A stretch of DNA of 62,451 nucleotides, counting the filler, from Hausera hauseri (lineage: Eukaryota): the NCBI GenBank assembly GCA_046269625.1. It is 13 parts of 13 records of this genome, joined end to end, with 100 filler letters (N's around TTAATTAATTAA, not from the genome) between each part and the next. Parts side by side here need not be neighbours in the genome. Positions count along the whole stretch, not along the records: positions 13,333 to 19,833 come from JBJURY010093321.1; 12 more parts are not named here. One strand, given 5' to 3'. Positions within the stretch are counted from its first letter, which is position 1. Each line of letters opens with the position of its first letter. Under the pieces are notes generated by a model, which was not told the origin of the DNA, searched no databases, and was given only the letters and a program-made list of their open reading frames with translations. This document shows positions 12,008 to 45,122 of this stretch, piece by piece. Made by a program: the position numbers and the translations under genes.

Positions 12008-13232
12008 TTAAAAATCCTGGCTAAAAACAATCATAAATGGACCTCAATTCTTCCTCTTGTCCTACTCGGTTGGCGCAACACGCCATCCGCCACTACAGGT
12101 TGTGCTCCAGCTGAGGCTTTTTTTGGGACGCCAGTTCGTGTACTTTTTGAGCTCTCCAATCTTGACGAAAGTCCGTCAGATAAAGTTATTTATGCGGCAC
12201 AGTCCCACTTTGCTGATGTAAACTCGAATGCTTTCTGCCGTCTTATAAACAAAGACAAATCTTATATCCCAGAGGGCATATACTCAGACAAATTTCTATG
12301 GTTGAAGGATTCGTCACCTTCTGGTTTTCGGCCTCAATACGTTGGACCTTACAAATTACTCAATCTTTCTTCGCACACTACCACTATTTTACGCAAAACC
12401 AACCCCATAATGTACACATCTCTAATCTTAAGCCAGCTTTCTTCGTTGATGATGACCAGGCTAACAGCCTTGTTTCAAATCCTGAATCTAATTTCTCTTC
12501 CCGCGAGTCATTATCTAATTTCCTCCATAATTTTGGGCCGTCGCAGCAATCGAGTCACAATTAATCCTATTCACTTCCGTCATCGTTTACTGCTCATTCA
12601 CCACTCATTTCACCGTCATCGCCTGCACACCCACCACTCACTTTACCGTCATCTCACGATTTGCCTTCATCTCCAGTCTCGCCTCTTTCGCTTGACCCAC
12701 TTCACTCTTCAGTTTTTTCTCCAATTTCACCTCTTCATGAAACATCTTCCCGAAACATCACAAAATCTACAGCTTCTTCCCTCGAACAACCCCGCAGGCA
12801 CTAGCAACATCTAACAGATTACGTCATGTGACGTTTAGCACTTACAGAAGGGAGAAGTTCATAGATGGAGTCCAACGTCTAACACGTACCAAAATCGCAC
12901 AGGTAGAAGCTCTTCTTTTTTCCTATTATAATTTTCATTTATTTTCTTCTCTTCGTAGTCTTTGTTTTGCCACGAGGGGGTGATGTAGTGCCTAGGATGT
13001 GGTTGCACTGTTTGAGGCTGTCGAATCGGTGAGAGAATTTCCCCCACCATGTGATTATGCGACACAAAGTTTTCATCTCAGAAGATGTAAATCGCAAAAG
13101 TCAACATTATTATCGCTAGTGCAAAAGTTGTAAATTTCAGATTTACAGAGACCGAAAAGGACGAGCAGGAAGGGTATATTACTATCAAGTCAATGGCAAA
13201 CCCTCTTTTACAATGAAATGGATAATGATTAC
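12008..13232 (+). mobile_element. Ty3/Gypsy 3' part: integrase C-terminus, S/H-rich tail, PPT, LTR starting at 12984
   Basis: WTSILPLVLLGWRNTP, YVGPYK (GPY/F), VHISNLKP; gagggggtga|TGTAG. Confidence 0.85.
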
Positions 13233-13332
13233 NNNNNNNNNNNNNNNNNNNNNNNNNNNNNNNNNNNNNNNNNNNNTTAATTAATTAANNNNNNNNNNNN
13301 NNNNNNNNNNNNNNNNNNNNNNNNNNNNNNNN

Positions 13333-13480
13333 AATGTACACGGGCGTCCGATCTCACTACCCAGAGATCAGGGGAATTTTTTACTAGAAGATCCAAGAGA
13401 AAAAAATCCCAAGTGCTTCCACCGGGATTCGAACCCCGTACGTCTAGCACTCGAGGCGGACGTCCTACCTCGAGACAATA
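13333..13480 (-). mobile_element. tRNA-derived SINE
   Basis: B-box GGTTCGAATCCC followed by a T-run and a non-tRNA body. Confidence 0.6.
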
Positions 13481-14217
13481 AAGCAAGAGATAGATAAGAA
13501 AGAAGTAAAAGAGACAGGGTGGCTAGAAGGGAAAACAAGAAAAGAAACAAAATGAGGTGGTAGTTGTAGTAGTAGTAATAGATGTCGTGGTGTTGGTGGT
13601 GGTTGTAGTTGTGGTAGGAGTAGCAGTTGTAGTATTATGAGATGTAACAGTAGGAATAGTAACCGTTGAATTAGTTGCAGTTTTAATTATGGTTGTGTGG
13701 ATGGTGGTAGGCGAAGTGGTGGTTTTAGTGGCGTCATTTTTGGTAAAAGGTTATAGTGACACTGGTAGCAAGTACGGCAACAGCAATAGTAGACGCTGAA
13801 ATTTTGTGAAGCATCAAACAGAAGTAGTCGACAAAGAAGAAGAAGAAATACACAAACGAACTTTATTGTCAAAGGGTTGAGATTTAGGCACGGATGACCG
13901 TCTTACACGTCGGGAGAGGACGAGCAGATGAGGAAAGAAATAAATCACCTCACAAACGGACGTGTTACGTTTTAAAAGTCCAACAATAACTACCTCTCTC
14001 ACCGATCGTGCCACAGACATCGTGTCTTGTCTGCCCAGACAATTCTTTTTCCAGGTTAATGGGTAAGACTTCCCGGTAATGCCGTGTGGGTGAAATGCGA
14101 CAAAAATCTTGGCATTAACAACGTATGAGAATACAAATGAGAAATGGCGTCAGTAATGCAGCTTTCTCACATTGTGGAGTTTCGAATCTAAATTTTGTTC
14201 TTCCAGCCAGACCAGAA

Positions 14218-14450
14218 GCCGATGTAGCGTAGTGGATAAGTTACTCGCCCGCGGACGAGGCGTCCTGGGCTCGACTTTCTTTCTGTAATAATAACTCCTG
14301 TTGGTGACTTAGTATTTAGTAAATTGCTACCTTAGTTCCCGCTGTGGGAAGGCAGATGAATATCGATACGGTGTGCCTGCTGTGAGCGACACTAGAGTGC
14401 CTGATTAACAACTGGTTACGCAGAGCAGAGTATAAATGGGCCACTTTTGT
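14218..14450 (+). mobile_element. tRNA-derived SINE
   Basis: GCCGATGTAGCGTAGTGGATAAG (A-box) ... GGGCTCGACT (B-box like). Confidence 0.55.
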
Positions 14451-14527
14451 AACATGATGGCAAATCACATCTCACATATGTGCTGATTTCATAACGGATA
14501 ATACTCGTAATAAAATTTTTTAAAAAA

Positions 14528-14929
14528 CTAAATTGGAACAGTCAATAAAGTCAACTCAGCACCACTTTCCAGATTTGATATACTTTTTCCGCATATTTGT
14601 TTGTCATCAAATCGTGTTTTAGCTTCAGAATCATGCTGAGATATAAACACAGAAACCATTCTTAATGTTTTAAATTCTAAAATATCCATTTCATAATTTT
14701 GCATTTGTTTCTGTAAATAAGACGATTGGGACAAACCCAGAGTTTCAAGTTTCATTTGTCTTTTCTGACTAAAATTCTTCACCCCGCTTGGTGAGAATTT
14801 ACACCTCTGACCTTCAAGGTTTTCTGGATCGATTGAGACACCAATTTCTTTATAATTTTTCGCGGTTTTCTCAAAATTCACAATTGCTGATTTTGTCCGT
14901 AACATCATCTCGCGGACATTCATAGTCAT
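14528..14929 (-). CDS. Hypothetical protein, 133 aa, single exon
   Basis: Open frame with AAAAATG start context and TATATAAG about 65 nt upstream. Confidence 0.55.
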   Translation of the reverse strand: MTMNVREMMLRTKSAIVNFEKTAKNYKEIGVSIDPENLEGQRCKFSPSGVKNFSQKRQMKLETLGLSQSSYLQKQMQNYEMDILEFKTLRMVSVFISQHDSEAKTRFDDKQICGKSISNLESGAELTLLTVPI

Positions 14930-15004
14930 TTTTAATTTTTAATTTTTTTCAATATTTATTGATTCGTATTTTTAATCAGCTGCTATAGCAGCTTATATAT
15001 TGGC

Positions 15005-16440
15005 CTATATATTTATTTTTATATATATGCTGTCCGGTCTGGATGTTGTGTTTATTGAGTAAAAAGACACCCCTTTCAAATAGATGTATACCAATTTAGT
15101 ATCGACGATAATCAGAGCATAATTCACGTCGATTTTACCCATTTCAATGGAATTGAAATGCCCATTTTCATAGTCCAAATAGATTTCTCCGAGAAACAAA
15201 ACAACCGTTCTGATTTTTTCATAATCGGTATCATTATAATACGTTATAACTTGTTCATCACAATCCCACAACGTTTTGCAACTGTTATTGAAACAATTAG
15301 TGTTCCTCACGTAACCATCTAAACCGAACCGCATAGCCTCAACAGAAGTACTGTAAAGAAAGACAGTTTGACAAATTACAGTTCCATTGATGGCATCATG
15401 TAAAATGTAATTGAATTTCTCATCGGCCATTTTGTCAAAACATTCATCAAAATTTTGCAATTCATGTTCAATGCATAAAAATATACATTTGCAAATGGGA
15501 TTTAACAAGCGAATCTGAAATTCCAAAACGTCTTCATAACCGCCTATTAAAAAGGCCAAAGTATGATCCATTATGATATTCATGGACATCGATCTTATTA
15601 AAGATATTCGATATAGTGTATGGGTCGATGAGATGGCCAATTTAAGGTGTTTGTTTATCACTGATTCATCAAGTGTTGTATTAAGTAAAGCTTGTAGATT
15701 CGACAAGTCTTTGTCAAACCTTTGCTGATCTCCGAAATGCTTCAAACTGACTTCTGTAATGACGGAGTCATCAAAGATCAATTCCCTTGTCAAATGACGC
15801 AATTTATAGTAAATACTGTTCGACATTTGAGCTGTTCGATGTTTTGCCTCATCGAGAAAATCTTTGGGTATAATATCGGTGATTTTTGCGATGAGATTTT
15901 CAGGCAACTCTTGGACAAATTCACCATTTTAATATTCTAAAAGAAAGGAAATTCTTATTAAAATCGACCAACATCATATCACATTCGGTATCAGTTCTCA
16001 ATTGAAAATACTCATAGTCGTCGGTAGTATATTGATGATGGAATAATTCCAAAAATGTTTCATTTAACAAACTCCTTAATTTCATCCTATCGTTGTCATG
16101 TTCAATGTGAACTTCGATTTTTTGGATTTTAAATGACCGATTCGGTCTAACATTTAACTCATAATCTAACAGTTCGTTCAAACTTTCTTCCACAGTATGG
16201 CATATTACTGAAATGGATAATGTATTAAAACAATTTCGTATGGTTTGATGAATTTCTTTCTTAGCTTCGTCCAGAAACTCTTTTGACACATTCATACCAC
16301 TTTTATTTGTAAAATTCGTAACGAACTTCGTATAAGTATTCGTAAACATGACCGCATCACTGGAAATAAAATTTCGAACAGAGTCCAATAAAAACTTATC
16401 CGACATTTCGTTGGTATTGCTAAACGAGACGTCTTCATGC
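15005..16440 (-). pseudogene. Unknown protein with an internal duplication, one frameshift near 15910-15925; in frame with the dynein fragment
   Basis: Long open frames 15005-15907 and 15921-16613; repeats SKEFLDEAKK..LRSLLNETF and PKDFLDEAKH..LQALLNTTL. Confidence 0.6.
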
Positions 16441-17750
16441 AGTCCATTATCTTCCACAATGAAAATTTCGATCATATCTTTAGAATTTTTAGCCAACAAG
16501 TATTCGTAATCTTTGTAGATTTTTGAATACTTTATTGGAGCCTCACAGTTTAACAACAAATAGTCTTGTAATTTCTGTTTAGATTCGATTACGAATTCTT
16601 CGTAACATTTCATTGATGATATTTAACAAACATCAGGTGCTCCTGCTGAATGAACGAAGATATTTTTCCAGTCGATAAAACTGGCTAACAGATCCGATTA
16701 TGTCATTCACAAGTTGACGTAGTTGATCACATACACAATCAAAATTAGGCACAAATATGATTTGACTTTGACTACTTGTGTCAGAATCGAGCTGTATTCT
16801 AATGAAATTCAATGTCCTGGACACGGACATTCCCGAAAAGAGCTCATATTCTCCTTCATAACACACAACATCCCGATATTCTTCGAACAACAATACCAAA
16901 TCAGAAATCGATTCTTTAACAATATGACGCAATAAATGTGACTGTAATGATGCAACACGATTGAAAAAATTTTCCATTTCCCTGCATCGGCTTATCTGTT
17001 CTTTTGGCGTCATACTTTCGATGAGATCGATATGAGTTTATGATGTTTCCACAGTTTTTCATCCAATGTTCTTGGAGAAACTGACTTTGTTCTATTGAGT
17101 ACTGTATACAGAGATCTATAATTTTTGTTATTGGTAGTGGCGCCTATTTTCGAATATCAGCAATGTTTATAAGTCGTATATTCCAATGTTTTTTACTGAA
17201 ATTTTCTAATAAAGTAATGATAACGGGATGAGCTGCGTAACCCGGATTTTCTAGAAACACTTGCTGCTTTTGTACGTTCATGCCCTGGCACTTGTTCGCG
17301 TAATACTGGATGTATTACCTTCTTGGGCATAAGTATTCCTAGACGCTTCTGTTCTTTCTTGCTTAATAAAATATAATCCAAGATGGCTTTCTTAATTGAT
17401 TTATGGAAGTTTATTTCTGATTCTTTAAGAAAATTTTCTGAAAATTCTGGAAAGGCTTCAACGAAAATTAATCTACATTTGAATTTTATTTCGAATTTTG
17501 ACTCATTGGAAAGGTCAGTTAACATTGAAAGATCATCAAATGAATTTTCCAATACCATCTGGTACCGGCTTTTATAACGCTTTTCCGGAGTAGCTGGCCT
17601 GGTTAATCCGATTGTTGATGTAAACCATGGAGTAAACTGAACGCCAATGACTTGCTTCGTTTCATCATCATGTTCAGATCGATCATTTACAATGTGAAGA
17701 AGAATGGCAATTTTCCGTAATTTCACGCAGAACATTTTTCCCAATAAAAT
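16440..17750 (-). pseudogene. Intronless N-terminal fragment of an axonemal inner-arm dynein heavy chain (DNAH3/7/12-like)
   Basis: SIKKAILDYILLSKKEQKRLGI, REQVPGH, FFNRVASLQSHLLRHIVKESISDL, IIFVPNF..RLEKYL, APIKYSKIYKDYEYLL in the expected order; no motor domain. Confidence 0.75.
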
Positions 17751-17995
17751 TCTTTGTCCCCTTAAATTCGTCTTGTCGAATACTGTTCAAAATATCAGTC
17801 GTTGACCGTTTTTCTATTGAATATTTACAATGCATTTCGGAACTGTCTGACACCATTTGTAAAACTTTGTAATTTTTAAACACTGCATACGATAAATTCC
17901 AAAAAAGGTGTAGAAAAGGTGTAAATTCCAACACAGAACGAGTAGACGCTAAGAACAGCAACTTTATTTCATATATTTTAAACCTCTAACTATAA

Positions 17996-18412
17996 TCAAT
18001 TAACTGTCAATGTCAATATAGACGGAATAATAGCAGTAATAAAACTTAAAATGAGGTTTCTTTTTAAATCCTTTGAATTCAACTGAAACAAAGTTACGAC
18101 TAATACCGAACTGACAAGATAAAAGAGTATTGGCAATATCAATAAAATATAATTTTCAATCGATTCACCACCTGACAAATATCCGTATTTTGAACGATAT
18201 GGTAAAGTTAAGTTCTTCCTTTTAGACGGTAAAGTGTTGCTGTTCAGTACGTATGTATCTTCATTTCCTTCAACATCATTGATGATGTATCTTTCACTGG
18301 CAAGTGAGAATTTTCGTTCTGGAAATTTTGGAGTAAGATATGGAGACATTTCAACATAATATGTTAACATCTGCATATAGTCGTCTTGGAGTAGTTTGTC
18401 ACGCATATTCAT
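17996..18412 (-). CDS. Hypothetical protein with two C-terminal hydrophobic helices
   Basis: 138-aa open frame; YILLILPILFYLVSSVLVVTLF and LILSFITAIIPSILTL. Confidence 0.55.
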   Translation of the reverse strand: MNMRDKLLQDDYMQMLTYYVEMSPYLTPKFPERKFSLASERYIINDVEGNEDTYVLNSNTLPSKRKNLTLPYRSKYGYLSGGESIENYILLILPILFYLVSSVLVVTLFQLNSKDLKRNLILSFITAIIPSILTLTVN

Positions 18413-18438
18413 GTTGTACTTTGATAACTTCGCAATAC

Positions 18439-19833
18439 TGTGGACCGTAGTGGCGCCCGAGTCCGCGGCACCACACTACCCCAATAGCAGAGGTGAAACA
18501 ATAGGAAGAGCCAAAAAAGTGAAAAGATGGAAAGAATAATCTGTGACGAAATTAAGCAGATAAAGTAGAACGGTGTAAGCGAATATTGGGTCTTTGTATA
18601 GACGAGATGTTGGATTTTGTCGACATTCTGTTCTCTAATGCATTTGCTGAATGTGACGGTCTTGTGTTTTTTCCTTGTTGTTTAATTGTTTGCTGAGTTG
18701 GTTGGTATGAAGTTGAATTTTGTTTTGACGTGTTAGCAGCTTGAAAAGTAGTCGGTATGTTGTTTAGCATAGTGTGTTGTGTTGATGCGGGTTTTGGAAC
18801 AGCAGGTTGTCGTGGAGGTAGAACAGAAGATAGGTTGAAGGAATCAAGGAAGGTATGTGCAGAGTTAGTTGTTGGATCCGGTGTGTCATTGACGAAAAAT
18901 GCAGGTTTTACGCTAGAAATGTGCACATTTTGTTCTTTGTCGTTTTTTAGTATCGTAACCGTGTGAGAAGTCATATTGAAAACTTTAAATGGTCCTAGAT
19001 AGTTTGTTTGGAAACCGGAAGGTGAAGGGTTTTTTAACCACACGAACTTTGCATTAAATAGTGAATCAGGTAAGTATGTTTTGTCACCATGTATTATTTT
19101 GCAGAAAGATTCGTGGCTTAGCTGGACAAAATAATTTTGTGCGGACCTAATGGTTTCTTCAGTTGGTGTGTTGTCCAAATCGGTGAGTTGAAACAGTGCA
19201 CGAATTGTGGTACCAAAAAGTGATTCAGCGGGTGCGCAACCAGTGGTAGTAGAGGGCGTGTTGTGCCACCCGAGTAGAACGAAAGGAAGGATAGCAGTCC
19301 AGAATTCGTATGAGTTTCGGCCAGAATTTTTAGGGAGATTTTAAGTGTGCGGTAAAAGCGTTCCAATAAGCCGTTTGATTGCGGGTGATATGGAGTTGCG
19401 TGTATATGATTTATGCCCAGTCGATTAACTAAAGACTTAAATAGGTTTGATTCAAATTAAGGACCTTGGTCTGTAATTATATAACGCAGTGAACCGAACC
19501 GGCTAATCCAAATCCTTATGAATGCATCGGCTATGGAGTCTATATATATGGAGCGCAAAGGGTCGGTCCATCATTGTTAGAACGAATTTGTGGCCGTTAT
19601 AGGATGGTAATGGGCCGATGATATCTAGATGTACACATTCAAAACGGGGCGTGCAGAGAAAATGAAATAAAGGTGGCTTAAGATGTTTAGCTACTTTCAA
19701 TTTTTGGCAAGCCATACATTGCCTAACCCAGTCTTGTACGTCAGACCTCATCGATGGCCATGTTACGTTACGTGTGAGGAGGTGGAATTTAGATTCGTAC
19801 CTGCGTGATGTAATGAATGGATATGGTTAAATG
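18439..19833 (-). mobile_element. Ty3/Gypsy integrase remnant with PPT and a 37-bp LTR-like end
   Basis: CMACQ, HLDIIGPLP, ERFYRTLK, YLGPFK; ttggggtag|TGTGG...CCACA (18475-18439). Confidence 0.85.
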
Positions 19834-24612: not shown

Positions 24613-27600
24613 AATAATCAACCGTAATATGCCAATGACAACAAGTGTCCCAAAAGCAAATCAGATGTGCGGTTCCTATGTTTATTGCATACCCAAAGCA
24701 CATAATCCGCAACAGTGTCATAAAACGATGCAGCGATATTATGGATACAAATCCAAAAATATCCAATATTATATATGTCCAGGATGCGAAACTGTATGCG
24801 GTGCAGATTGCATGCAGATCTATTATGATTACAAACATCATTTGAGTCACTTTGCATTAAAGTCAAAGAAGGCCATATATAAGGAGCAATATAATATTTA
24901 TGCATCTGCTTCGCAGTATGATGCTTTGCAGTATGATGCTTCGCAGTATTAATCCTCGCATTATGCTGCAGGATCTGGTGCAGCAGCTGCGAAATAACTT
25001 AGAGAATTGAAACCCGCAGCCGCAACATGGGCATCAGGCCAATCAGGCGCAACATGCGCATCAGGCCCATCAGGACATAAGGCCCATCAGGCCCATCAGG
25101 TGTAGCGGCTCCAAAACAGTCAAAGAAAGCGGCCAGTTAATGCTGCAGCATTAAATATAAAATGCCGCAGCTATGTTATTGATACAACTGGCCAAACGAC
25201 GCTCCAATACTTTCCCTTATACACAAAGGACGAGACAGAGGGGATTCGCCAGGACAACATGGCGGAGATCAAAGCCCTTAAGTTGAATATGAAACTGCAG
25301 GCCACATACATCAATGTTGATGGAGAAGAATTCAATAGGGCCTTCAAGACCAAAAATAGACCCATATTGGAAAACAACAATATAGCAGAATGGATGCAAG
25401 AGGCGCACGAGAAGCTGATCCACAAGGCTGAGCAGAGCCAGGATAAGAAGTGCGGATGGACTCTGCAACCATCAAGAGATTGCTTATGTATGTGCACAAG
25501 TACTCTCCAATGCGGAATAGTTCACATATTCAACTTCCGGAATGGATCGTAGGAAAAAAGGCATGCATCAATGTCCTTAATGATGACAACAAGTGTTTCG
25601 TGTATGCCATTCTATCAAAACTTGTACGGGATCAACATAATGCTGCACGAGTTTGGCTATATAATAATGTGCAGCACAACTATGACTTCCAGAGTATCAA
25701 GTTCCCACCAACCATAGATGAAGTCAAAATTTAGGACGACTCAACAATATATCAATCAATATTATTGGATTGGATAAGGAAGATAAATTCTATCCTTTGC
25801 ATATATGCGATGTTGAATTGGAAGACCATAGGGATCTGCACCTACTAGATGATTGTGAAACGAAAAATTATATTTAAATGAAGAACTTTGAACGTATAGT
25901 CAAATCCCAAATTACGAAACATCATGGACAAATAAAAACATGTAAACAGTGCTTGGCCATTTTCAGTAGTAATGCAACAATGGACAAGCTTGAAGAGCAC
26001 AAGATCTATTGCAACAACAATTACTGTGTAAGGCCAAGATTTCTCAAGGGGGACTGTATTGAATTCAAGGAGTTCGAGAAGAAGATCAAGGTTCCAATAG
26101 TTATCTATTGCGACTTTGAAGCGATCCTGCGTCCAGTTCACAGCTGCACTCCCTGTCCTCAACATAACTTATAATATTGTATGTATGCCAAAGGACTGGA
26201 CAGTGAACAATATCTATTCAAAAATCCACGTGCAGCAGCACATTTCATGAAACGACTTTAAGACATGGCTCATAAGCTTGAAAACATGCTTCAGCAGCAT
26301 AAGGATAAGATGAGCATGTCGTGGAAACAAAAAGAAGAATGGCGCAAGGCAACAGTAAGTTACTTGTGCGACAAGTCCTTCACCAAGGAAAATTGGAAAG
26401 TCAAGGATCACTGCCATTTTACAGGTGCATATCGAGGGGCAGCATGCAACAATTGCAATCTTCGTTGCAAAACATGCATATATGTGCTGTAGTGTTCCAA
26501 CATCTCAGTGGCTATAATTCTCATTTCATAGTCCCAGAAATAGACAATATTGAAGGAAATGTTAAGGTGATCCCTAATAGATATGAGAAGTACATCACCT
26601 TTACCAAAAATGTTGAAAAAATCCGACTTCGATTCATAGACAGCTTTTGTTTCATATCGTCTTCACTTGACAGTTTAGTGAAGAACCTCCCTGCAGAAGA
26701 AATCTAGAACACGAAGCGATTCTTCCTGCTATATTTTACCTGGTTAAAAGAAAAGGCGTGTTTCCCTATGATTATATAACATGATGGGAAACACTGGACG
26801 AGACCTCCTTGCTAGCCAAGAAGAACTTTTACAATATCCTCTCTAATTGCGATATCAGTGATGCTGATTATTAGCATGCCCAAAACGTCTGGCATGCATT
26901 TCAATGCCAAACATTAGGGGAATATAGTGATGTATATCTCTAAACCGATGAACTGCTGCTGACAGATGTCCATGAGAGCTTCAGGGATGTTACATTGAAG
27001 AGCCACGCATTAGATCCTACTCATTTCTTTACGGCTCGAGGGACGAGTTGGGCAACAATGCTGCGCTATACTGGCACAAGGCTGCAGATAATTAAGGATT
27101 ACGACATGATCCTTATGTTCGAGAGAGGCATTAGAGGCAAAATATATCAGGCCATTCACTAGTATAACGAAGCCAACAAAAAGTATATGACTCAGTATGA
27201 TCCATCCAAGGAACTCTCAGATATATCATACCTGGATGCTAGCAACTTGTATGGATGGGCGATGAGCGTCCCATTGCCATATGATAACTTTAAATGGGTC
27301 GAGAATCCTGAAAACATCCATATATTGGACCTAGATCCCACTGGAGGTACGAACTACATACTGGAGACAGATATAGAATATCCAGTTTCTATCCACGCAA
27401 GGCATCAACAGCTGCCTTTCCTCCCTGAGAGCAAACCTCCGTCACATGAAAAGCATAGAAAGCTGCTCTGTCATTTGGGTAATAAGGAGATGTATGTAGT
27501 CCAGTACATCAATCTCCAGCAGGCAATTAGACATGGCCTTCGTATTACTATGATCCATAGAGCCCTGCAGTTTAGCCAGTTAATGTGGCTGCAGTCATAT

Positions 27601-28424
27601 ATAGATCTCAATAGGAAGCTGCGGATTAATGCCAAGAACGACTTTGAGAAGGATCAATTCAAGCTATACAACAACAACAGTGGTTTTGGCAAGACCATGA
27701 GTGAATATCCGCAACAGGATCAACATCGAACTGGTCTCTGAGTGGAAGCGAGCAAAGAAGCTCATTGCCAAGCCCAACTTCCACAGAAGCACCGTACATG
27801 CTGAGAACTTGGTTAGCATTTATATGCTAAAAACAGCATTTGTATTCAACAAGCCCATATATGTGGATATGAAAATATTGGATCTATCAAAGTCCTTGAT
27901 GTACAGCTTCCATTAGGATATAATGGTCCCCAAGTTCAAGTCCATACGCTGATGTATATGGATATTGACAGTTTCATCTACCAGATCCATACAGATGATA
28001 TTTATGAGGACTTTGCCGAATTGTCCCAACATATACCGCTGATTATCAGAAAGAACATCTCAACTATTCAATTGTCAATAAGAAAGTTCTAGGGAAATTC
28101 AATGACGAGGTGAATGGAACAATCATCTCAAGATTTGTAGATCTCAGGTCCAAAATGCATGCTCTAGACATATGTGGTCAGATCAAAAAGAGAGCCAAGG
28201 GCGTTCAAAGGGTTACACTAACCAGAAAGATTGGCTTCAATGACTATGTAAGAGGTCTGCCGGAGCAGACTAATATCATATCAAAAATGCGAAGGATCCA
28301 GTATAGGGATCGTAACATCCAAACAGTAACATTGCATAAGAAAACCTTAGATTGGATGGATGACAAGAGGCAGATCTTGAGCAATGGAATCCACATACTA
28401 CTTCAGGGACATGTGGCATTGTAA
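24613..28424 (+). pseudogene. polB: Polinton/adintovirus-type protein-primed DNA polymerase B, copy 1 (5' truncated)
   Basis: YCDFE, endonuclease VII-like KDHCHFTGAYRGAACNNCNL, GYNSHF, FIDSF, KGVFPYDY, YLDASNLYG, KLYNN..FGKT, LRSKM, DDKR; many stops and frameshifts. Confidence 0.93.
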
Positions 28425-28781
28425 ATATTGTTATTCATTGTTGTTCATTTTTTAATAAATGTTGTATAGAAATAACGTGTTGTTTTCTTGATTAAAGTAA
28501 TGTGGGATATAGGATAAGGCCAAGTAAAACAAAGTAACTACTATATAGGTTAAGACCAACTAATTTCATAGCACATTTATTTAGTACCAATATACCTTTG
28601 ACATAATGCTAAACACTTTTTAGTGTGTGTGTTTGTGCTTGTTTTTGCTTGTAAAATGTAAGTAACCTGAGAAACAACATANNNNNNNNNNNNNNNNNNN
28701 NNNNNNNNNNNNNNNNNNNNNNNNNTTAATTAATTAANNNNNNNNNNNNNNNNNNNNNNNNNNNNNNNNNNNNNNNNNNNN

Positions 28782-31380
28782 GTTATGTTATTTTATTGTC
28801 TTACGAAACGTTGTGACGATTAGGTTTCGTAATGGGATTTTGGAGGTAGGTCTGTACTAAATCTGCATTTGTCGTAGCACTTTCAGAATCATTTTGGTTG
28901 GCATTAAAGGATTAACGTTCTGATTGGAATTTGTCGCTGTCTTATGATTCAGTGATTTAAAAGGCACGGCTCCTCAATTACTCGGCTACTGCTTATGTCA
29001 TGGAGTAGAGTAGATTCCATCTTTAAAGATGAGTCTAAAGTGTGTATTGGTTCTGATTTAAAGATAATCTTCTCATATAATTCGACGGATTAAATTCATA
29101 AGGCGGGGAGTTAGACCTGACTATCGATCCGACGCGGCGATAGCGGATGCCTGGCCGTGTCCAACCAAATGGGCTAAAGGACACCTACCGCGGTGGACAC
29201 CACATCACCCCTCCCTTCGTGGCAAGGATAAACTATAAAGAGTAAAAGAGACAGAAAGAAAAAATTGCCAAACGAAAGAGTGTCAGTGTCAGCTAATCTT
29301 AGTGTGAACAAGACGTTGGGTACCTGATACTGATTTTTCCCTGCTATACATGCTAAATGTGATTCTGCGTGTTTTGTCTTTATGCGATGTGTTTGCTTGC
29401 AGAGTTTGAAGTTGGGGAGAAAGTTGTCAGATTTTGTTGTGAGTGTTGTGTTGTGCAAAACGAGTCAGAATGAAGAGAAGAAGAGGGTGAATGAGGAAGA
29501 GATATTGGCGGAGACGGATGGTTAAAGGTATTCAATAGAGTGTTAGAAGACGAAAGACTGACAAAAGGTGTAATGGCGGATGAAGAAGGAAAGACAAAAT
29601 TAAAGTAAAAATTGGACTTGTGTTAGGCGAAAGAGTAGAAGTAGAAAATGAGACAGGGGTAGTGGTAGAGATAGGAAGAGAGATAAGGATAGAAGTAGAA
29701 GGTGTAGGAAATGATGAAGCAGAGCTAGGAGCAGAAGGAGGTGGTGGAACAGGTGTAGCAATAGGTATAGGAATAGCAAAACGTGTAGGAGTGATAAAAG
29801 AGGTTCATGTGTCTATTTGTGAAATGTGTCAACAAAAAAGGAGGGTTTTAAGTTGGTGATATGCACTGTAAGTTCTTTGCCGTCATTAGAAATAATAGCG
29901 TTCTATGAATGCAGCTGCATCAGTTTATATGGCCCCAGATATCGCGGTTGGAAACCGCACGGCGTTTGATTCTTTAGTCATACGAATTTTGCCGAATACA
30001 AATCTTCGGGTAAATAAGTTTTTTCTTTATGGAGTAACCTGCAGAACGAATCTTTTCTGACCGTAACAAAGTGATTTTGCGCCGCTCGTATTGTTTCATC
30101 TGTAGGAGTGTCATCTAGGGTTGTTAGTCCAAATACTGATCGTACAGGAGCTCCGAATAAGGCTTCAGTAGGTGAGCATCCTGTAGAAGTAGACTGAATG
30201 TTCCGCCAGCCAAGCAGAACAAACGGAAGAAGATTCGTCCATCTAGTGTTGGACTCTGTAAGAATTCTTAGTGACATTTTCAATGTTCGGTGGAAACGTT
30301 CTAAAATGCCATTCAATTGGGGGTGATAAGGCGTAGTATGTATGTGGTTGATCCCCAATTGGTTAACAAGGGATTTGAACAGGTTAGATCCAAACTGTGG
30401 TCCCTGGTCCGTGATGATGAAACGAGGTGATCCAAACCTGCTAATCCATGTACGAATGAAACCGACAGCTATGGTGTCAGTATTTGTGCGCCGCAGAGGG
30501 ATGGCTTCTGGCCATTGCGAGGTACGGTCCATCATGGTGCGAATGAATTGATGACCGTTGTCTGGAGGAAGAGGGCCGACGATGTCAATATGCACGGATT
30601 CAAAACGCGATGTGCAGGGAAATTGGAATAGTGGTGGCTTTAAATGCTTAGTTGTTTTGTATTTTTGGCGAGCCACACACTCCTTAGCCCATGCCTGCAC
30701 ATCAGAACGAATTGACGGCCAAACTACTTGTCGATGGAGTAAACGAAAAGTGGCTTTAGAATCAGGACGGTGTAGCGATTGTACACTATTAAAGGCTTGC
30801 CTTTGCAACGGTGGTGCGAGGATTATTAAGGAATGGCTTGGTTTGGAAGTGTCTAAAGCCACACCGTCAACGATTGTGCATGAAGTGAAAGAAATAAGCA
30901 TGTACTGAAGTGGCTGGTTCTGTTAGAGTTGAGCTTGCGTAGAAAAGGTGAGAAATTAATCTAACTAACCGACCTAGATAAAAAGTCGGCAAACAAAATT
31001 ATTAAACCCATTAATATGTTTTATGTCGAAGTTAAATGTCGACAAGTATGATATCTGTCGTTCTTGGCGTGTGGAAGGATGTTTCATAGCCATGACGTTA
31101 AGTAAGGGTTTGTGCTTGGTTTCTAGATGCAGAATGGGCGCGGTCAGCAACAAAATCCCTTCACCGGGACAGGGAAAGCTCGTTCAATTTGTTGTTTATA
31201 TTGTTAATGGTTGCGTGTAGTGCGGTATTTTCAGCACGTAGCTGATTGAGTTGCTGTTCTAATGATGTTATTGGATTGAATGTCGTTAGGGGCAACTGTC
31301 GCCGAAACGACTAGTGGGGAATTTAATTGTAGAACATCGTGTGTCTGTTGTAATTTTATTGTACTAATATTGCTATAAAT
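28782..31380 (-). mobile_element. Ty3/Gypsy remnant, internally deleted; integrase 29978-30901; 3' LTR from 29204 toward the contig end
   Basis: DDE motifs HIDIVGP, ITDQG, LERFHR; gaagggaggggtga|TGTGG. Confidence 0.9.
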
Positions 31381-34716: not shown

Positions 34717-35354
34717 CTAATGGCATAATCGTTGGGTACGGTTATCGTAGGTGTAGGAGAAGTGGTAGTAGATTGATGGTTGACGGCAGTAAGGGCAGGA
34801 TATACCATTCTGAAATGTCATTCGAAGGGCATCTCTTAGATCAATGAATTGAAGGAATTGGGAACTAAGTTTGTTCAAATATGTTGCACATAGATTGTGA
34901 CTGCATTGAAATTGGACCACTGTTATTCTTTCAGTGAGACAAATCGTACACTCGTAAGTTGGAAGTTGATCGTAGAAAAGGATTTGAAATGTTGCCCAAA
35001 GATCATGCGGGGCTAGGTCGGAAATGAGGTCAATTGGACATCTGTTTAAGACTGGGAACCAATCTTCTTGTAATGACTGTGGTAGTGGAGGATTGTGAGA
35101 AATAGATGATGTAGGTGTTATTGAAGGTGCAGGTACTGGTAGTTCAGGTAATGGTCTAATAATCGGCTCAAAATAATAACGTGGATGCAATATTGAAGAT
35201 GGTTGACGTAGAAGAGACGTGACATTTATGTGGGGCAAAGGTACTTGGTAGGTAATTGGTGGTAGTCTAATTATTGTGGATGGACTAAAACGATGGATTG
35301 GAAATTTAATTCTCGTTGACAATTGTTGCTGTAATCGGAAGTATCTTGTTGGAA
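34717..35354 (-). CDS. Pro-rich protein with a C-terminal RING finger (open to the contig edge)
   Basis: CTIC..QCSHNLCATY..CPYC; one ligand Cys replaced by Tyr. Confidence 0.7.
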
Positions 35355-35454: not shown

Positions 35455-35975
35455 CAGACAAACACTCACACAGGCAAACACACAGACATATATCTGAGCT
35501 ATACCTTTTCTCAGGTTAGTTGCACTTTACATATACATACAAGTACAAGCACATGCACACAAGCACGTACCATATAACTTAATCATTCATTTCGCAAGTT
35601 AATCACATTTCACTCACACAAGCACATACACACAAGCACAAACTATATATCTTAATCATTCATTTTTCAAGTTATTTACATTTTACATGCACTAGCATAC
35701 TGACATATATCTGGGATATACCTTTTCTCAGGTTACTTATATTTTAAAAGCACAGACATGCACACAAGCACAAACACTTACACATACACTATAAAAAGTG
35801 TTTAGCGTTATGTCAAAGTTATGTTGTTATGAAATAAATGTGTTATGAAATTAGTTGGCCTTATCCTATATAGTAGTTACTTAGTTTTACTTGGTCTTAT
35901 CCTATATCCCACATTACTTGGTCAAGAAGACAACACGATATTTTTATATAACATTTATTAACAATGAATAATAAT
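35455..35975. repeat. Conserved pPolB 3' flank with direct repeats (probable subterminal region)
   Basis: atatctg(a/g)g(c/a)tataccttttctcaggtta at about 35490 and 35706; homologous to 28425-28681 and 40290-40440. Confidence 0.65.
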
Positions 35976-35977
35976 AT

Positions 35978-38900
35978 TTAAAATGCCACATGTCCGTGAG
36001 GTAGTGTATGGATTCCATCACCCAGGATCTGCCTCTTGTCATACATTTAATCTTGGCTTTTCTTATGCAGTGTTACTGTTTGGATGTTATGATCCCTAGA
36101 TTGGATCTTTCTCACTTCCGATATTATGTGTATAATTCTCACATAGTCCTCAAAACTGATCTTCTTGGCCAAGGTCGCCCTTTAAACGCCCTTAGCTCTC
36201 TTTTTGATCTGACCACATACGTCTAGAGCATACATTTTAGATCTGAGAGCTACAGATTTCGAGATGTTTGCTCCATTCATCTCGTCTTTAAATTTCCCTA
36301 AGACTTTCTTATTGGCAAATGAAAAGTTGGGATGTTCCTTAGGATAATCCGAGGTATTTATGTGTTGAGCCAATTGGCCAAAGTCCTCATAAATGTCCTC
36401 AGTATGGATCTGATAGATGAAACTATCAGTATCCATGTACATCAACTGCATGGACTTGTATGTTGGGACCATGATATCGTAGTGAAATTTGTACATCAAG
36501 GTCTTTGATAGATCCAATACTGCCATATTCACATATATGGGCTTGTTGAATACCAATGCTGTTTTCAGCATATGGATTCCTACCAAGTTCTCCATATATA
36601 TTGTGCTGTTGTGGAAGTTAGGCTTAGCAATAAGATTCTTTGTCCGCTTCCAGTCATATACTAGCTCGATGTTGATCCTGTTGCGGATATTCTCCATGGT
36701 TTTGCCAAAACGCTGTTGTTATATAGTTTGAATGGGTCTTTCTCAAAGTCGTTCTTGGCACTGGTCCTCAGCTTTGTATTGAGATCTATGTATGACTGCA
36801 GCCACATGGATTGGCTGAACTGCAGGGCTCTATGGATCTTACTAATACGAAGTCCATGTCTATCTGTCTACTGGAGATTGATGTAGTGAACTATATACCT
36901 ATCCCTATTACCCAGATGATAGAACAGCTTTCCCTGCTTTCCATGGAGCGAAGGCCTGCTCTCAGGGAGAAAAGCCAGCTGTTGATGCCTTGTGTGGATG
37001 GAAGCCGAATATTCCATATCCACCTCCAGTATGTAGCCCGTATCTCCAGTGGGATCCAGGTCCAGTATAGGGATGTTTTCAGGATTCTCGACCCATTTAA
37101 AGTTATCACATGGCAATGGGGCGCTCATTGCCAATCCATACAAGTTGTTGGCATCCAGATATAATATATATGAGGATTCCTTTGTTGAATCGTATTCGGC
37201 CATATACTTGTTATTGGCTTCACTATACCGATGAATCGCATGGCACATTCCGCCTCTTATGCCTCTCTCAATCATAAGGATCATATCATAATCCTTAATG
37301 ATCTGCAGCCTAATACCAGTATAACACAGCATTGCTGCTCAACTCATTCCTGGAGCTGTAAAGAAATGAGCCGGATCCAAAGAATGGCTCTTCATTGTAA
37401 CATCCCTGAAACTCTCAAAGACGTCTGTCAGCAGCAGCACATCGATTTGGAGATATATATATTACCATGTTCCCCTATTTCCTTGCATTGGAATGCCTGC
37501 CAGACGTTCTGAGCATGCTGGTAGTCCACATTACTAATATCACAATTCGACAGCTGGCTATAAAAGCCCTCTTTGTCCGGCAATGAGGTGTCAACCAGTG
37601 ATTTCCATGAAGTTATATAGTCATAAGGAAACACTCCTTTCCTTTTAACCAGATCAAAGGTAGTGGGGAAGAATCGCTTCGTCTCCTTGAGTTCTTCTGT
37701 ATGGAGGTTCTTCACTAAACTATCCAGTGAAGACAACATGAAACGAAAGCTGTCTATAAAGCGAAGTCGGATTTTACCAACATGCTTAGTGAAAATGATA
37801 TACTTCTCCTCAATGTTTGGGATCACATATATTACCATCAATGTTGCCTAATTCTCGAACTATGAAATGGGAACTATAGCCACTGAGATTATGGAACACT
37901 ACAGGTACATATGTGCATGTTTTGCAGCGAATATTGCAGTTGTTGCATGCTGCCACTCGATATACACCTGTAAAATAACAGTAATTCTTGACTTTCCAAT
38001 TTTCCTTGGTGAAGGACTTGTCTCACAAGTAATATGTTCTTTTCTTGCGCCATTCTTCTTCTTGTTTCCACGACATGTTCATATTATACTTATGCTGCTG
38101 AAGCATATTTTCAAGCTTATGAGCCATGTTTTCAAGTCTTTTCATTAAATGTGCTGCTGCACCTGGATCTCTGAATAGAAATGGTTCACTGTCCAGTCCT
38201 TTGGCATACATGCAATACGATGAGAGTTCATGATATAGGTATGCCGTTGTGCTGCTGTGTTGAGGACTGGGAGTGCATGTCTGAACTGGCCTGAGAATAG
38301 CTTCAAAGTCGCAATAGACGACAATTGGGACCTTGAGCTTCTTGTCGAACTCCTTGAATTCAATATAGTCCTCCTAGAAAAATTCTGGCCTGATACAATA
38401 ATTGTTGTTGCAGTGCATATTGTGCTCTGCAAGCTTGTCCACTGCTGAATCCCTACTGTAGTGAGTCAAGCATCGCTTGCAGATCTCAATTTCCCATGAT
38501 GTTTCGTAATTTGAGATCTTACTAGACGTTCGAAGTTCTTTATTCAGATGAAATGCCTCTTTTTACCATCGTCTAGTAGGAGCAGATCCCTATAGTCTTC
38601 CAATTCAACATCGCATATCTGCAGGGGATAGAATTTATCTTCCTCATCCAATCCAAAGATATTGATTAATATATAGTTGATTCGACTGATCTTCTTGATT
38701 TTATCTAAGGATGGAGGGAATGTAATACACTGGAAGTTATAGTTGTGCTGCACATCCTTATATAGCCAAACTCGTGAAGCATTATGTTGATCTGGTACGA
38801 GTTTTGATAGAATGACATACATGAAACACTTGTTGTCATCAGTAAAAACATTGATGCATGCCTTTTTCCTTATGATCCAATCAGGAAGCAGAATATATGA

Positions 38901-39989
38901 ACTACCCGCATCGGGGAGAATCTGTGCACATACATAAACAATCTCTTGATAGTTGCCAGAGTCCATCCGCTCTTCTTACTCCGGCTCTTATCGGCTTCAG
39001 TAATCACATTCGCATGTTATTCATGCAGCCATTCTACTATACTGGTGGCTTCAAAAATTGGCCTATTTCTGGTCTTGAGGGACCTTTTAAACTCTTTGCC
39101 ATCAACATTAACGTATGTGGCCTCAAGTTTCATATTAACCTTAAGGGCCTTGGGCTTAGCTATGTTGTCTTGCATAATCCCTATTGTTGATTCCTCTGTG
39201 TACTCTAGAAACTCCTTGATGGTTGTTTGACCAGCTGCATTAATGACATAATTGTGGACTTTTCTCTTTAATGCTGCAGCATTAACTGGCCTTTGTCTTT
39301 GGCTTTTTGATGGAGCCGCTACGCCTGGTGCACCTGATGGGCCTGATGGGTCTGATGGGTCTGATGCACTTGATAGGTCTGATGCGCGTTTTAGTCTTGC
39401 ATCTGGATGTACTGCTGCATCTGGCTGTGGTACTGCAGGCTGTGCTGCTGCAACTGGCTTATGTTCATTAAAGATGATCTTTGACTTTGATGTGAAGTCA
39501 GTCAATTAATGTTTTTGATCTTCCTAAAACTGAATGTATTCGCCATCACATACAGTCTCACATCCTGGGCAAATATAATAAAGGATCCTATTGAATTTGT
39601 GGACATAATAGCTCCTCATGATATTGTGGCAATTCTCAGGGTTATGTATTGTATATGTGCAATACACATATGAACTTCACTTTTGATTTTCCTTTGACAC
39701 AAAAAACGTCATTGGCATATTGGTACTGAATATTTGTTTTTTAGATTTGTCGAAGGAAATCAAGTGCTGTTTATGAACATTGCAAAATTCTTCATATTTG
39801 GTTTGGCACACTACCTCACATGTAGGGCATATATAATAATGAACCTTGTTGTATAGAACGCCAAAGTACTTTTTCATAATACTATGGCAATTTTCAGGCT
39901 CATGGATTTGAGCCAAGCATTCTCTGTAAAGTTTGCACATCTAAAAATCAACAAATTATTTGAGGAGCACAATTTAAAAAACTTACCAT
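35978..39989 (-). pseudogene. polB: Protein-primed PolB, copy 2 (near full length)
   Basis: Same motifs as copy 1, plus YMDTDS and KKVLGKFKDE; duplicated N-terminal Cys/His domain. Confidence 0.93.
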
Positions 39990-40446
39990 TCGTTGAAATG
40001 ATTTTGGAAATAATGAAAAATATAATCATATCACCATGTACTGCCCCTCATATTGATCGGTTTTAATGCACTTTTGTTTTAATGCATTANNNNNNNNNNN
40101 NNNNNNNNNNNNNNNNNNNNNNNNNNNNNNNNNTTAATTAATTAANNNNNNNNNNNNNNNNNNNNNNNNNNNNNNNNNNNNNNNNNNNNACAAGTTTTCA
40201 ACATTTTGAAATAATGAAAGACTAATGCAAGTAAATGTCGCACTGTATTGATTTTTATTCAAATTTTAAATTTATTGATTTTATTGGTCTTATTTGGTCT
40301 TCACCTATATAATAATTACTTAGTTTTACTTGGCCTTATCCGACCTCCCACATTACTTGATTAAATAAGACAACACAATATTTTCTATAAAAGATTTATT
40401 GTATCAAAAAATAACAACAACAACAACAACAACAGTATATACATAT

Positions 40447-43400
40447 TTACAATCCTACATGCCCATGAGGTAATGTGTGTACTCCGTCTCTGAGGATCTG
40501 CCTCTTATCATCGATCCAATCCATGCTCTTTTTGTGCAGTTCGACTTTTTCGATCGAATGATCCCTGGATTGAATCCACCGCATTTTAGGTATTATATGA
40601 GTCTGCTCCTGCAGAACTGTCACACAATCCTCAAAACTGATCCTTTTGGCCAATGTTGTTCTCTGCACGCCCTTTGCCCTTTTTTGATTTGTCTACATAC
40701 GTTGAGAATGTACATTTTTGATCTTAGAGCCACAAAACGGGTGATTATCTTACCATTCACCTCGTCCTTGAATTTCCCAAGGACCTTCTTATTCATATTT
40801 GAGTAATTTGGATGATCCTTCGGATAATCCGAGGTATATATGTGATGAGACAATTGCGAAAAATTCACATGCACGTCCTCCGTATTGATCTGATAGATAA
40901 AACTGTCAGTGTCCATATACACTAGCTGTACGGACTGTTGGAATGTTGGTACCATTATCTCATGATGGAAGTCGTACATTAGGGATTTTGATAGGTCCAG
41001 TATTGCCATACCCACATATGTGGGTTTGTAGAATACTAGTGGTGATTTTAGCGTATGGATCCCTACCAAATTCTCAGAATATATGGTGAGGTGAAGGTTA
41101 GGCTTGGCTATATGCTTCTTTGCACGCTTCCATTCACATACTAGCTCGATGTTAATCCTGTTGCGAATATTCTCCATCGTCTTGCCAAAAACGCTGTCAT
41201 TATACAGCTTAAATTGATCTTTCTCGAAATCGTTTTTGGCATTTGTCTGCAACTTAGTATTTAGATCAATGTAGGACTGCAGCCACATGGACTGGCTGAA
41301 CTGGAGGGCTCTGTGGATCTTGGTAATGCGGAGTCCATGTTTAACTGCCTGATGGAGATTTATGTAGTGGACTACATACCTCTCCATATTACCCAAATGA
41401 CAGAGCAGCTTTCGCTGCTTTCCACTGGGCGGTGGTCTGATTTCAAGGAGAAAAGGCAGTTGTTCATGCCTTGTGTGGATGAAAGTAGAATATTCCATAT
41501 CCACTTCCAGTATGTATCCCGTATCTCCAGCCGGGTCCAGGTCCATGATAGGGATGTCTTCAGGATCCTCAACCCACTTGAAATTATCATATGGAAATGG
41601 GGCGCTCATTTCCCATCCATACAAGTTGTTAGCATCCAGGTAAGAAATATATGATGACTCATTTGTTGAGTCATATTCGGCCATATACTTGTTGTTGGCC
41701 TCACTATACCGGTGAATGGCTTGGCATATTCCTCCTCTAATGCCTATTTCGATCATAAGGATCATGTCGTAATCCTTAATGATTTGCAGCCTGATACTAG
41801 TATAGCGTAGCATTGCTGCCCAGCTCATCCCTAGAGCTGTGAAGAAATGAGCCGGATCCAAAGTATGGTTCTTCATTGTAACATGCCTGAAACTTTCAGA
41901 GCCATCTGTAAGAAGCAGCACATGTTTGGAGATATATATCACTATATTCCCCTATTGTTCTGCATTGGAATGCCTGCCAGACGTTCTGAACATGCTGGTA
42001 GTCAGCATCATTGATATCACAGTCCGACAACTGGCTGTAAAAACCATCCTTTGGAGGTAATGATGACTCATCCAGTGTTTCCCATGATGTTATATAATCA
42101 TAGGGAAACACTCCTTTCCTCTTAACCATGTCAAAGGTATACGGAAAGAATCGCTTCGTTTCCTTGAGTTCTTCGTCAGGCAGATTCTTCACTAAACTAT
42201 CGAGTGAAGACGACATGAATCGGAAACTATCGATGAAACAAAATCGGATTTTACCAACGTGCTTTGTGAAAGTGATATATTTCTCCTCACTGTTGGGGAT
42301 CACATCTATATTGCCATCAATGGTGCCTAATTCTCGGGCTATAAAGTGGCTGTCATAGCTGATGAGATTATGAAACATTACATGCACATATGTACATGTT
42401 TTGCAGCGAAGATTGCAGTTGTTACATGCTGCGCCCCGATATGAACCTGTAAAATGACAGTGATCCTTAACTTTCCAATTTTCCTTGGTGAAGGACTTGT
42501 CGCACAAGTAGCATGATGCTGCCTTACGGCATTCTTTTTCTGGCATTCAAGACATGCTCATGTCGTCCTTATGTTGTTGCAGCATTTCTACAAGCTTGTG
42601 ATCAATGTCTTCAAGTCTATTCATGAAATGTGCAGCTGCGCCTGGACCCCTGAATAGATATGGTTCATTGTCAATCCTTTGGCATACATACAATACGATG
42701 ATAATTCGTGATATTGGTATGCCGTTGTACTGCTGTGTTGAGGATTGGGACTCCATGTATGAACTGGACTGAGAATGGCCTCAGTCGCAATAGATGACAA
42801 TTGGGATCTTGATCTTATTCTCGAATTCCTTAAATTCGATATAATCCTCTTCAGGAAATTCTGACCTTATACAATAATTGTTGTTACAGTACATCTTGTG
42901 CTCCTTCAACTTCGCCACAGCTAACTTACCGCTGAAATGCGATAAGCATCTTTTACATATTTCGATTCCGTGTTCATTCTTTGTTATTTGGGATCTGACT
43001 AGACGCTCAAAATTCTTTATCCAAACATGATGTTTCTTATCACCATCATCTAGTAGGAACAGATCCCTATGATCTTCAAAATTCATCATCACATATTTGT
43101 AAGGGGTAGAATTTGTCCTCCCCATCCAATCCAAAGATATTGATGGATGTTGTTGATGCGGCTGAACTTCTTGATTTCATCTATGGATAGATGGAATGTG
43201 ATACACTGAAACTCGTAGTTGTGCTGCACATCCTTATATAGCCAAATCCGATCTGCTGCATGCCTTTGATCCGTTACGAGTTTTGATAGATGGCATACAT
43301 GAAGCACATGTTGTCATTATTCTGAACATTGACACATACTCTTTTATTAGCGATCCATTCCGGAAGCTGTATATATGAACTGCCTCGCATGGGGAAGTAT

Positions 43401-44445: not shown

Positions 44446-45122
44446 TCGCGGAAGTAAATTTGGANNNNNNNNNNATTGATGCAATAAAACAAAACACATG
44501 TACGGAAATAATTTTGATGCAGTAAAATAAAACACATGTAAAGAAGTAATTTTATTGGTGGGGTAAATTTGGCACTGCATATTGTTGCCAATATGTTGTC
44601 AACATAATGTACATTTGTTTTAAGGCATCAATTGCATAAACTTGTCACATAATTATGCCATCGTATTGCTTGTCAATATCATGCGTTTGTCTTAATGCAT
44701 CAAATGATTTAAATATGCGGCGGCGCCATATTCGAATAGGTTTTCATATATGCGGAATCGATTATAGCCATCAGATTCTTCGAATAATTCATGCTTGACC
44801 GAATATTCGAGTTTGAATCGATAATTCTTAGAGTTCGAATAATATATTCGATCATCTAATATCATATTCCCATTCGGCATATATGCTTTTTTATCTAGCC
44901 CCGCTATTAGATTTATCCATTTCCGCTTTATAGTGCTTTAAATGCACATTGTGCTTAATTAGAAATATTGATTTTATGCCCATATGGTACATTTTTATGG
45001 AATAATTTTTATGTACAAAGGGNNNNNNNNNNNNNNNNNNNNNNNNNNNNNNNNNNNNNNNNNNNNTTAATTAATTAANNNNNNNNNNNNNNNNNNNNNN
45101 NNNNNNNNNNNNNNNNNNNNNN

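Follow-up and report, generated by a model that had tools for sequence, protein, structure and literature searches.

An intron-free cassette in Hausera hauseri as a probable patchwork of captured RNA fragments between a Gypsy integrase and a BEL/Pao LTR reading frame

A compact run of same-strand reading frames without apparent introns, at positions 14528-18412, raises the question of what kind of element assembled it. The run lies on contig C93321 (13333-19833) of the fragmented 869-Mb assembly of an animal, Hausera hauseri. The window, that is the whole stretch of DNA analysed, is 62,451 nucleotides long and is a pack of 13 stretches of this genome. The initial annotation proposed that the cassette is cargo carried by a giant transposon, or by a large DNA virus now endogenous, that captures host mRNAs. 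Our analysis supports a mobile element that captures intron-free, same-strand gene pieces, but the features of the carrier are those of an LTR retrotransposon, namely an integrase, a purine tract and a TG start, to which the sister BEL copies add a tRNA primer site and a CA end. We consider it probable that the cassette, which starts at the start of a Gypsy 3′ LTR, is a patchwork of intron-free fragments likely captured from co-packaged RNAs by switching of the reverse transcriptase, and that it ends in the cut-off ORF of a BEL/Pao LTR, likely acquired by the same route. The window copy is broken and probably inert.

The features of the locus, in coding-strand order, are given below; L numbers denote sister loci.

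18491-19833, minus: 3′ end of a Gypsy (Ty3/Gypsy) pol, a broken integrase and 3′ region (Integrase_H2C2 at 19506-19751 with E 2e-4, which falls short of the curated cut-off)
18476-18490, minus: degenerate polypurine tract, a G-run immediately ahead of the TG start, longer in sister copies
18441-18475, minus: Gypsy LTR head, 35 nt, with TG start and hairpin fold
18420-18440, minus: head extension found in a few sisters (88% to L007 over 18416-18475; similar in L166 and L169)
18181-18419, minus: cargo A, C-terminal part of an ORF (92-93% to L005 and L007, with other neighbours there; no Pfam family)
17847-18180, minus: cargo B, hydrophobic fragment fused to A, the two forming the 'membrane protein' (no sister among the fetched loci)
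17781-17846, minus: cargo C, 66 bp, continuing as cargo D in L021 (92% to L021)
16484-17772, minus: N-terminal fragment of an axonemal dynein heavy chain, intron-free, split over three ORFs (weak collinear matches)
15577-16483, minus: cargo D, coding sequence common to a BEL-headed LTR (92% over 908 bp to L021; no Pfam family)
15039-15576, minus: cargo E, coding fragment fused to D (no Pfam family)
14930-15038, minus: upstream region of the BEL core, with AT-rich run, TATA-like box and palindrome (common to L004, L010, L016 and L019)
14978-14993, no strand: 16-bp palindrome, a conserved hairpin at the same position across copies, with differing stem sequences
14535-14929, minus: the '133-aa orphan', which is the BEL core ORF cut off after its first 131 codons
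13908-14534, no strand: sequence behind the cut (self match only, in 40 scored of 170 candidates)
13850-13907, minus: 3′ tail of a separate high-copy repeat (39 other contigs match, ending in simple repeats)

Reading frames, cargo blocks and the Gypsy boundary

Six ATG-started minus-strand ORFs cover 84% of the cassette, in agreement with the same-strand tiling first described, but the gaps between them measure 260, 179, 19, 94 and 75 bp and are not all below 100 bp. Nor do the frames represent separate genes: the dynein-like piece spans three of them, and the ORFs of 230 aa and 273 aa, like the 'membrane protein', are fusions, the pieces of which match different sister loci. Blastn blocks against these loci were observed at 18181-18419 (L005, L007), 17781-17846 together with 15577-16483 (L021), 17425-17772 within the dynein piece (L003) and 14533-15038 (many loci). 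A Pfam search of the cassette ORFs returned no family; the hallmarks of a large DNA virus or Polinton (capsid, PolB, packaging ATPase, terminal inverted repeats) have no such Pfam match in the six ORFs, and the PolB remnant that was tested lies on another contig. The 75-bp gap does contain TATATAAG (14999-14992), the palindrome and an AATAAA, as annotated. On the coding strand, the TATA-like box and palindrome come first and the AATAAA is downstream of them, so that a layout of poly(A) signal followed by promoter does not apply.

On the left, the cassette is adjoined upstream by a Gypsy integrase on the same strand, and the claim that these contigs hold no hallmark gene therefore fails. The pol 3′ end in the window shares 67-70% DNA identity with the pol of L119 and L134, and an rve-bearing relative is present at 29981-30922 of the window. 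The region 18400-18640 gave at least 46 matches in the 40 scored of 249 candidates. The order is that of Ty3/Gypsy, with a pol carrying its integrase 3′ and then a purine tract and a TG-starting LTR (at 18475 and in 18 sister loci). The Gypsy reverse transcriptase would fall beyond the contig end, and the contig holds one LTR only. The 35-nt head, found in 18 of the 24 fetched sister loci, is followed by about 13 different continuations, each common only to a small group; a sister head folds at -16.8 kcal/mol (a single fold, raw energy), and in 9 of the 11 loci long enough to test, the sense strand carries the longest ORF that follows the head. Taken together, the integrase, the purine tract, the TG start and a shared head with diverging sequence behind it place the cassette in the 3′ LTR position of a Gypsy family. 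None of the 18 Gypsy-headed sisters has a BEL core behind its head within the fetched sequence (at most 1.5 kb), and of 88 core loci only the one in the window is Gypsy-headed.

Matches of the dynein fragment to axonemal heavy chains are weak but collinear. Two of its parts match DNAH3 at 279-337 (E 0.08) and 423-529 (E 0.0013), and a third matches a dynein heavy chain with E 0.12; a search against proteins of 236-2000 aa, a length range too short for a heavy chain, gave no homologue. A parent-like exon on a separate contig, 96% identical over 80 nt of the piece, is followed by GTAAG at the point where the window stays in frame, which indicates that one intron position is missing from the window copy. 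In L021, cargo C and D are joined by approximately 420 bp, in place of which the window carries the dynein piece, and run X1 also contains a contig without it. A few letters are shared at two of the window joints, including the return joint, a raw observation that may be at chance level. Dynein between C and D is the pattern that a template switch out and back would leave in the sequence. For the 307-aa frame of D and E, the homologue search was blank. Cargo A, B, D and E being without a matched source, their host origin is assumed.

Two further intron-free cassettes of the window had been grouped with this one. At 2729 the first stretch has an LTR head of a third kind (2319 candidates), preceded by the RING ORF and followed by the ORF at 3850-4314, while a search of the dUTPase stretch for the three LTR heads and the leader found none of them. 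With heads that are different or absent and no common sequence, the three cassettes do not form a single element. The host gene of the window (first named stum) does look spliced, as stated, since a GT donor closes its exon at 51400-51211. A carrier of Terminon/Penelope type was dropped, as an Rfam scan of 1-19833 yielded neither a hammerhead nor any other family.

A BEL/Pao LTR family with variable cargo

The supposed 133-aa orphan belongs to a high-copy family, and the multi-copy expectation was borne out in 150 of 150 scored matches among 586 candidates. This core ORF spans 300-450 codons, and in the window it is cut at 14535. Stops occur in 19 of the 150 scored matches; among 75 copies with long matches, 70 are open in the core frame and none in the other two frames, and dN/dS comes to about 0.64 in 2415 pairs that are not independent. 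The core frame is kept open under weak constraint, with the reservation that protein-based picking favours open copies. A homologue search with the full core ORF (183-583 aa only) was blank, and Pfam on 35 aligned cores found nothing except two single weak matches. Its AlphaFold model is poor (pLDDT 45), with one long helix at 68-114. Behind 14535 the right end (CA) of the window LTR was not found in the 40 scored of 170 candidates, and the repeat tail at 13850-13907 is one which we take to be LINE-like.

Comparison of 88 BEL core loci, chosen by score and long flanks, gave the order of the LTR as a 340-bp arm, a leader-like motif, variable cargo, a hairpin, the core ORF and a tRNA-iMet site. 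The arm was observed upstream of the core in 34 of the 88 loci, at a distance of 0.5-2.3 kb, and in 21 of the 26 with at least 2 kb upstream; it was never antisense there. The arm begins with TGTTG, and many right ends read CAACA or TACA. A purine tract precedes the arm in 7 of the 88 loci; in L022 a Pao peptidase A17, an integrase and DUF5641 lie ahead of purine tract and arm, and pol is also present in L002 and L021. All seven arms preceded by a purine tract lack internal sequence behind the core (four extend far enough to test), and the three arms with internal sequence behind all have ordinary flanks.

At its far end, the core ORF enters tandem units complementary to 16-28 nt at the 3′ end of the tRNA-Met encoded in this genome. 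Beyond these units there is either a CA end followed by unrelated DNA or, in nine loci read by eye, a conserved internal region; the primer site itself is an 18-19 nt match to tRNA-Met, followed by the conserved internal sequence. Seven of the nine copies that reach the internal region keep the frame in register across the primer site. In L070 the frame runs for 717 codons with a ubiquitin domain at 658-717, no other domain being recognised there, where contigs end early. Its position suggests that the core ORF is likely a gag N-terminal extension starting inside the LTR. In Ty1, gag likewise starts inside the LTR, ahead of the primer site. A strong, GC-containing hairpin is found at most 170 nt upstream of the core ORF in 36 of 85 copies, against 2% of shuffles, and lies mostly 55-85 nt ahead. 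The palindrome may be an RNA dimer signal or a pause site, by analogy with PAL1/PAL2 of Ty1.

Between arm and core, the copies carry differing intron-free coding pieces, among them COG7, EGF repeats, MFAP1 and GPP34, and CLUAP1, cyclase or WD40 pieces occur in core loci for which no arm was fetched; Pfam matches in the cargo overall comprise COG7, EGF, MFAP1, CLUAP1, GPP34, cyclase, WD40, TBC and bromodomain. An intron-bearing COG7 parent gene was not found in the assembly. Approached from the arm side, the core was present in only 3 of 16 BEL-flagged contigs, which had been selected through the leader, and 4 of 40 leader contigs. Nine contigs have no core despite at least 2 kb downstream, implying that cargo is often longer or that the arm pairs with other right ends.

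The BEL arm ends in a 44-nt motif which closes in ATG, and the 25-nt end of this motif has 181 exact matches in the genome. In 67 cases its placement was 45 times arm-linked and 15 times free at the start of other pieces, with 7 unsorted; in five loci it stands directly behind a second Gypsy head. Behind the motif, 49 of 61 cases (sisters counted) have their longer ORF in sense orientation, and the motif ATG opens at least 40 codons in 20 of the 61, the other frames doing so in 6 and 10 (sisters counted, one frame being TGA-biased). Several of these ORFs begin near protein N-termini, as in MFAP1 (12 to 12) and synaptophysin (5 to 13). The motif ends like the published Macrostomum leader, and all flatworm leaders are reported to end in ATG (PMC12582326). 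The motif is likely a spliced leader and, on this resemblance, the host is likely a flatworm. None of 13 pattern matches in the fragmented assembly was an SL RNA gene with GT donor and Sm site, and the leader is absent from the window's own cassette.

Assembly of the cassette: proposed mechanism and alternatives

The window reads, in order, Gypsy integrase, purine tract, TG head, cargo and BEL core. L021 has BEL pol, purine tract, BEL arm, cargo C-D and then Gypsy gag and protease. Contigs of run X1, used as a check of the joints, cross those between pol and head, A and B (without any difference), C and dynein, dynein and D, and E and core, and one links the core upstream region with D and the last part of E. 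The head/A joint lies outside the listed X1 pieces; L007 links head and A. Since X1 may itself be the source sample, these contigs count against misassembly only.

We propose that minus-strand synthesis would begin at the primer site and pass through the core. The reverse transcriptase would then jump to a cellular mRNA via short homology and copy it to its 5′ end, after which the nascent strand would transfer to the 3′ end of the element; in the BEL family, the spliced leader would offer a common landing sequence for this transfer. The cargo would thereby be inherited by both LTRs, and successive rounds would stack and swap pieces, including between Gypsy and BEL RNAs that share cargo. Against this proposal stand the target-site duplications missing from the BEL loci, the weak link of arm and core when approached from the arm, the lack of a BEL core in the Gypsy-headed sisters, the right end of the window LTR, the SL RNA gene and the COG7 parent that were looked for and not found, the unmatched cargo A, B, D and E, and the absence of a leader from the window's own cassette. 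A more specific version, to which we give somewhat less than an even chance, is that the BEL/Pao LTR has built in the host spliced leader as its strand-transfer repeat. Trans-spliced mRNAs would then be copied 5′ first, with their start codon, into both LTRs, and the resulting cargo LTRs of 2-4 kb would form a pool for swaps of LTR halves between Gypsy and BEL, as in the window and its apparent reciprocal L021.

An alternative that we hold to be rather unlikely accepts that cargo entered the LTRs at the RNA level and makes the Gypsy-to-BEL join a later event, through DNA recombination of two elements with cargo D or through local misassembly. L021 resembles the reciprocal product of such an exchange, with BEL pol and arm, cargo C-D and then Gypsy gag-protease. 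A target-site duplication is missing in all four testable, solo-like BEL loci (both ends, no internal region; a small sample), which is consistent with recombination between elements. Misassembly is opposed by the X1 contigs across most joints, including the sister that links D and E to the core upstream region. Recombination at the DNA and at the RNA level gives the same picture here, so that this alternative overlaps with the reading we prefer.

It is much less probable that the fragments are retrocopies made by LINEs, or pieces captured as DNA in the manner of Helitron or Pack elements, inserted into existing LTRs. The genome is rich in LINE-like tails and remnants of DNA transposons, and intron loss is expected of retrocopies by either route, but the cargo begins at a fixed point after head or leader in many loci, has the sense bias described above and retains the 5′ rather than the 3′ ends of genes, and a poly(A) tract is absent at the inspected joints. 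An endogenous large DNA virus, or a giant DNA transposon, that left compact genes behind would find room in cargo D and E, which have no homologue, and in the Polinton-type PolB remnants on other contigs of the pack, but is scarcely credible given that the cassette ORFs are fused, broken fragments flanked by LTR hallmarks, that the orphan is a member of the BEL LTR family, that the three cassettes share neither sequence nor a single head, and that the integrase-purine tract-TG junction and the sister loci contradict it.

Capture of mRNA by LTR elements has so far been regarded as an occasional accident in the interior of the element. On our preferred reading, that of capture by template switching, at least three LTR families of one genome seem to capture mRNA routinely at the LTR, where cargo would double and gain a promoter ahead of it in every cycle. 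If the spliced leader is indeed the transfer repeat, this would account for the leader-plus-LTR loci discarded by flatworm SL surveys and would provide a general route to 5′-complete retrogenes and exon shuffling in trans-splicing animals. The locus is also a warning that cargo mosaics in LTRs imitate compact viral cassettes and will contaminate gene annotation.

Comparison with known systems

In a literature search that covered few subscription journals, no description was found of cargo within animal LTRs, of a leader serving strand transfer, of this BEL architecture or of a Gypsy-BEL chimera. The closest process is LTR-mediated retroposition in metazoans, for which Tan et al. (2016; PMC5131818) describe pieces of mRNA, partial, intron-free and frequently from several genes, that template switching at short similarities has joined to Gypsy or Pao elements, as well as secondary copying and one family with a fixed switch site. 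The window shares with these the lost intron (one position) and short similarity at two joints, which may be at chance level. In that process the retrocopy takes the place of some of the internal ORF sequence flanked by the LTRs. Here the cargo lies at the LTR itself, after purine tract and LTR start and ahead of the primer site; a fixed head stands in front of it, and in the BEL family the leader-like motif is its immediate upstream neighbour.

For parasitic flatworms, 597 leader-bearing loci near LTR or LINE elements have been reported, and trans-spliced element transcripts were proposed by the authors (PMC12582326). That account does not appear to include a leader fixed within the LTR ahead of variable host cargo, the arrangement suggested here. 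The 5′ RNA of yeast Ty1 has a tRNA-iMet primer, extra tRNA-pairing boxes and 5′-UTR palindromes for RNA dimers (PMC6844567), and the BEL family resembles it in its tRNA-iMet primer, its added tRNA-pairing units and the palindrome in its 5′ region. Ty1, however, is of Copia type with a short, fixed LTR and no cargo, whereas 300-450 codons lie ahead of the primer site here. The giant LTR elements Burro of planarians and Ogre of plants are oversized and carry extra domains, with Ogre LTRs of 1.9-6.5 kb (PMC6431247); on that account their extra domains are fixed and belong to the internal region, whereas the extra DNA here is in the LTR and varies between copies. The finding is thus a variation on LTR-mediated retroposition, with the leader-tailed BEL arm and the exchange across families as its notable parts.

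Elements and repeats in the window

Several further features were identified in the window:
2729 (+) and 29204 (-), Gypsy LTR heads of a second family
13333-13476, repeat containing a tRNA-like segment
18077-18315, 239 bp identical to a contig of sequencing run X2
24613-28681, 35455-40089 and 40190-45022, three broken regions of Polinton-type polymerase B, each on a contig of its own
34720-35352 (-), RING-finger ORF
45126-48644 (-), uninterrupted ORF of 1173 aa

The tRNA-like repeat, which we take to be probably a SINE, has matching sequence in two other loci (L116 and L059). Run X2 is labelled as another organism, and the identity may reflect either contamination or a close relative. Within the last of the polymerase B regions, positions 40623-41951 match the Pfam family PF03175. 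The RING-finger ORF shares its contig and strand with a Gypsy integrase. The 1173-aa ORF gave a weak match to P-loop GTPases, and is possibly of non-host origin.

Members of the second Gypsy head family were also found in L189, L232, L235, L238 and L240. The sequence downstream of these heads is variable, and in five loci the leader-like motif lies directly behind the head.

Cargo of BEL LTRs

Seven or more contigs (L023, L242-L252) share the same 5' piece of COG7, located behind the arm and the leader, but its 3' end differs among them. In L025, a pair of BEL cargo LTRs is placed in facing orientation, the right end of one adjoining the region upstream of the other's core, inverted. L062 carries an intron-free beta-lactamase-family ORF (2412-3380 (-); PF00144, E 7e-19) in sense orientation, with a BEL core 400 bp downstream. 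This ORF is possibly bacterial; captured bacterial RNA, an old transfer and a misjoin were considered as its source.

Tandem primer-site units

The LTR end and primer site are repeated as tandem units of 60-70 bp in L024, L025, L070, L072 and L117-L144. These units look like relics of primer mis-processing that occurred repeatedly. Many of them pair with 28 nt of tRNA-Met, compared with the usual 18 nt.
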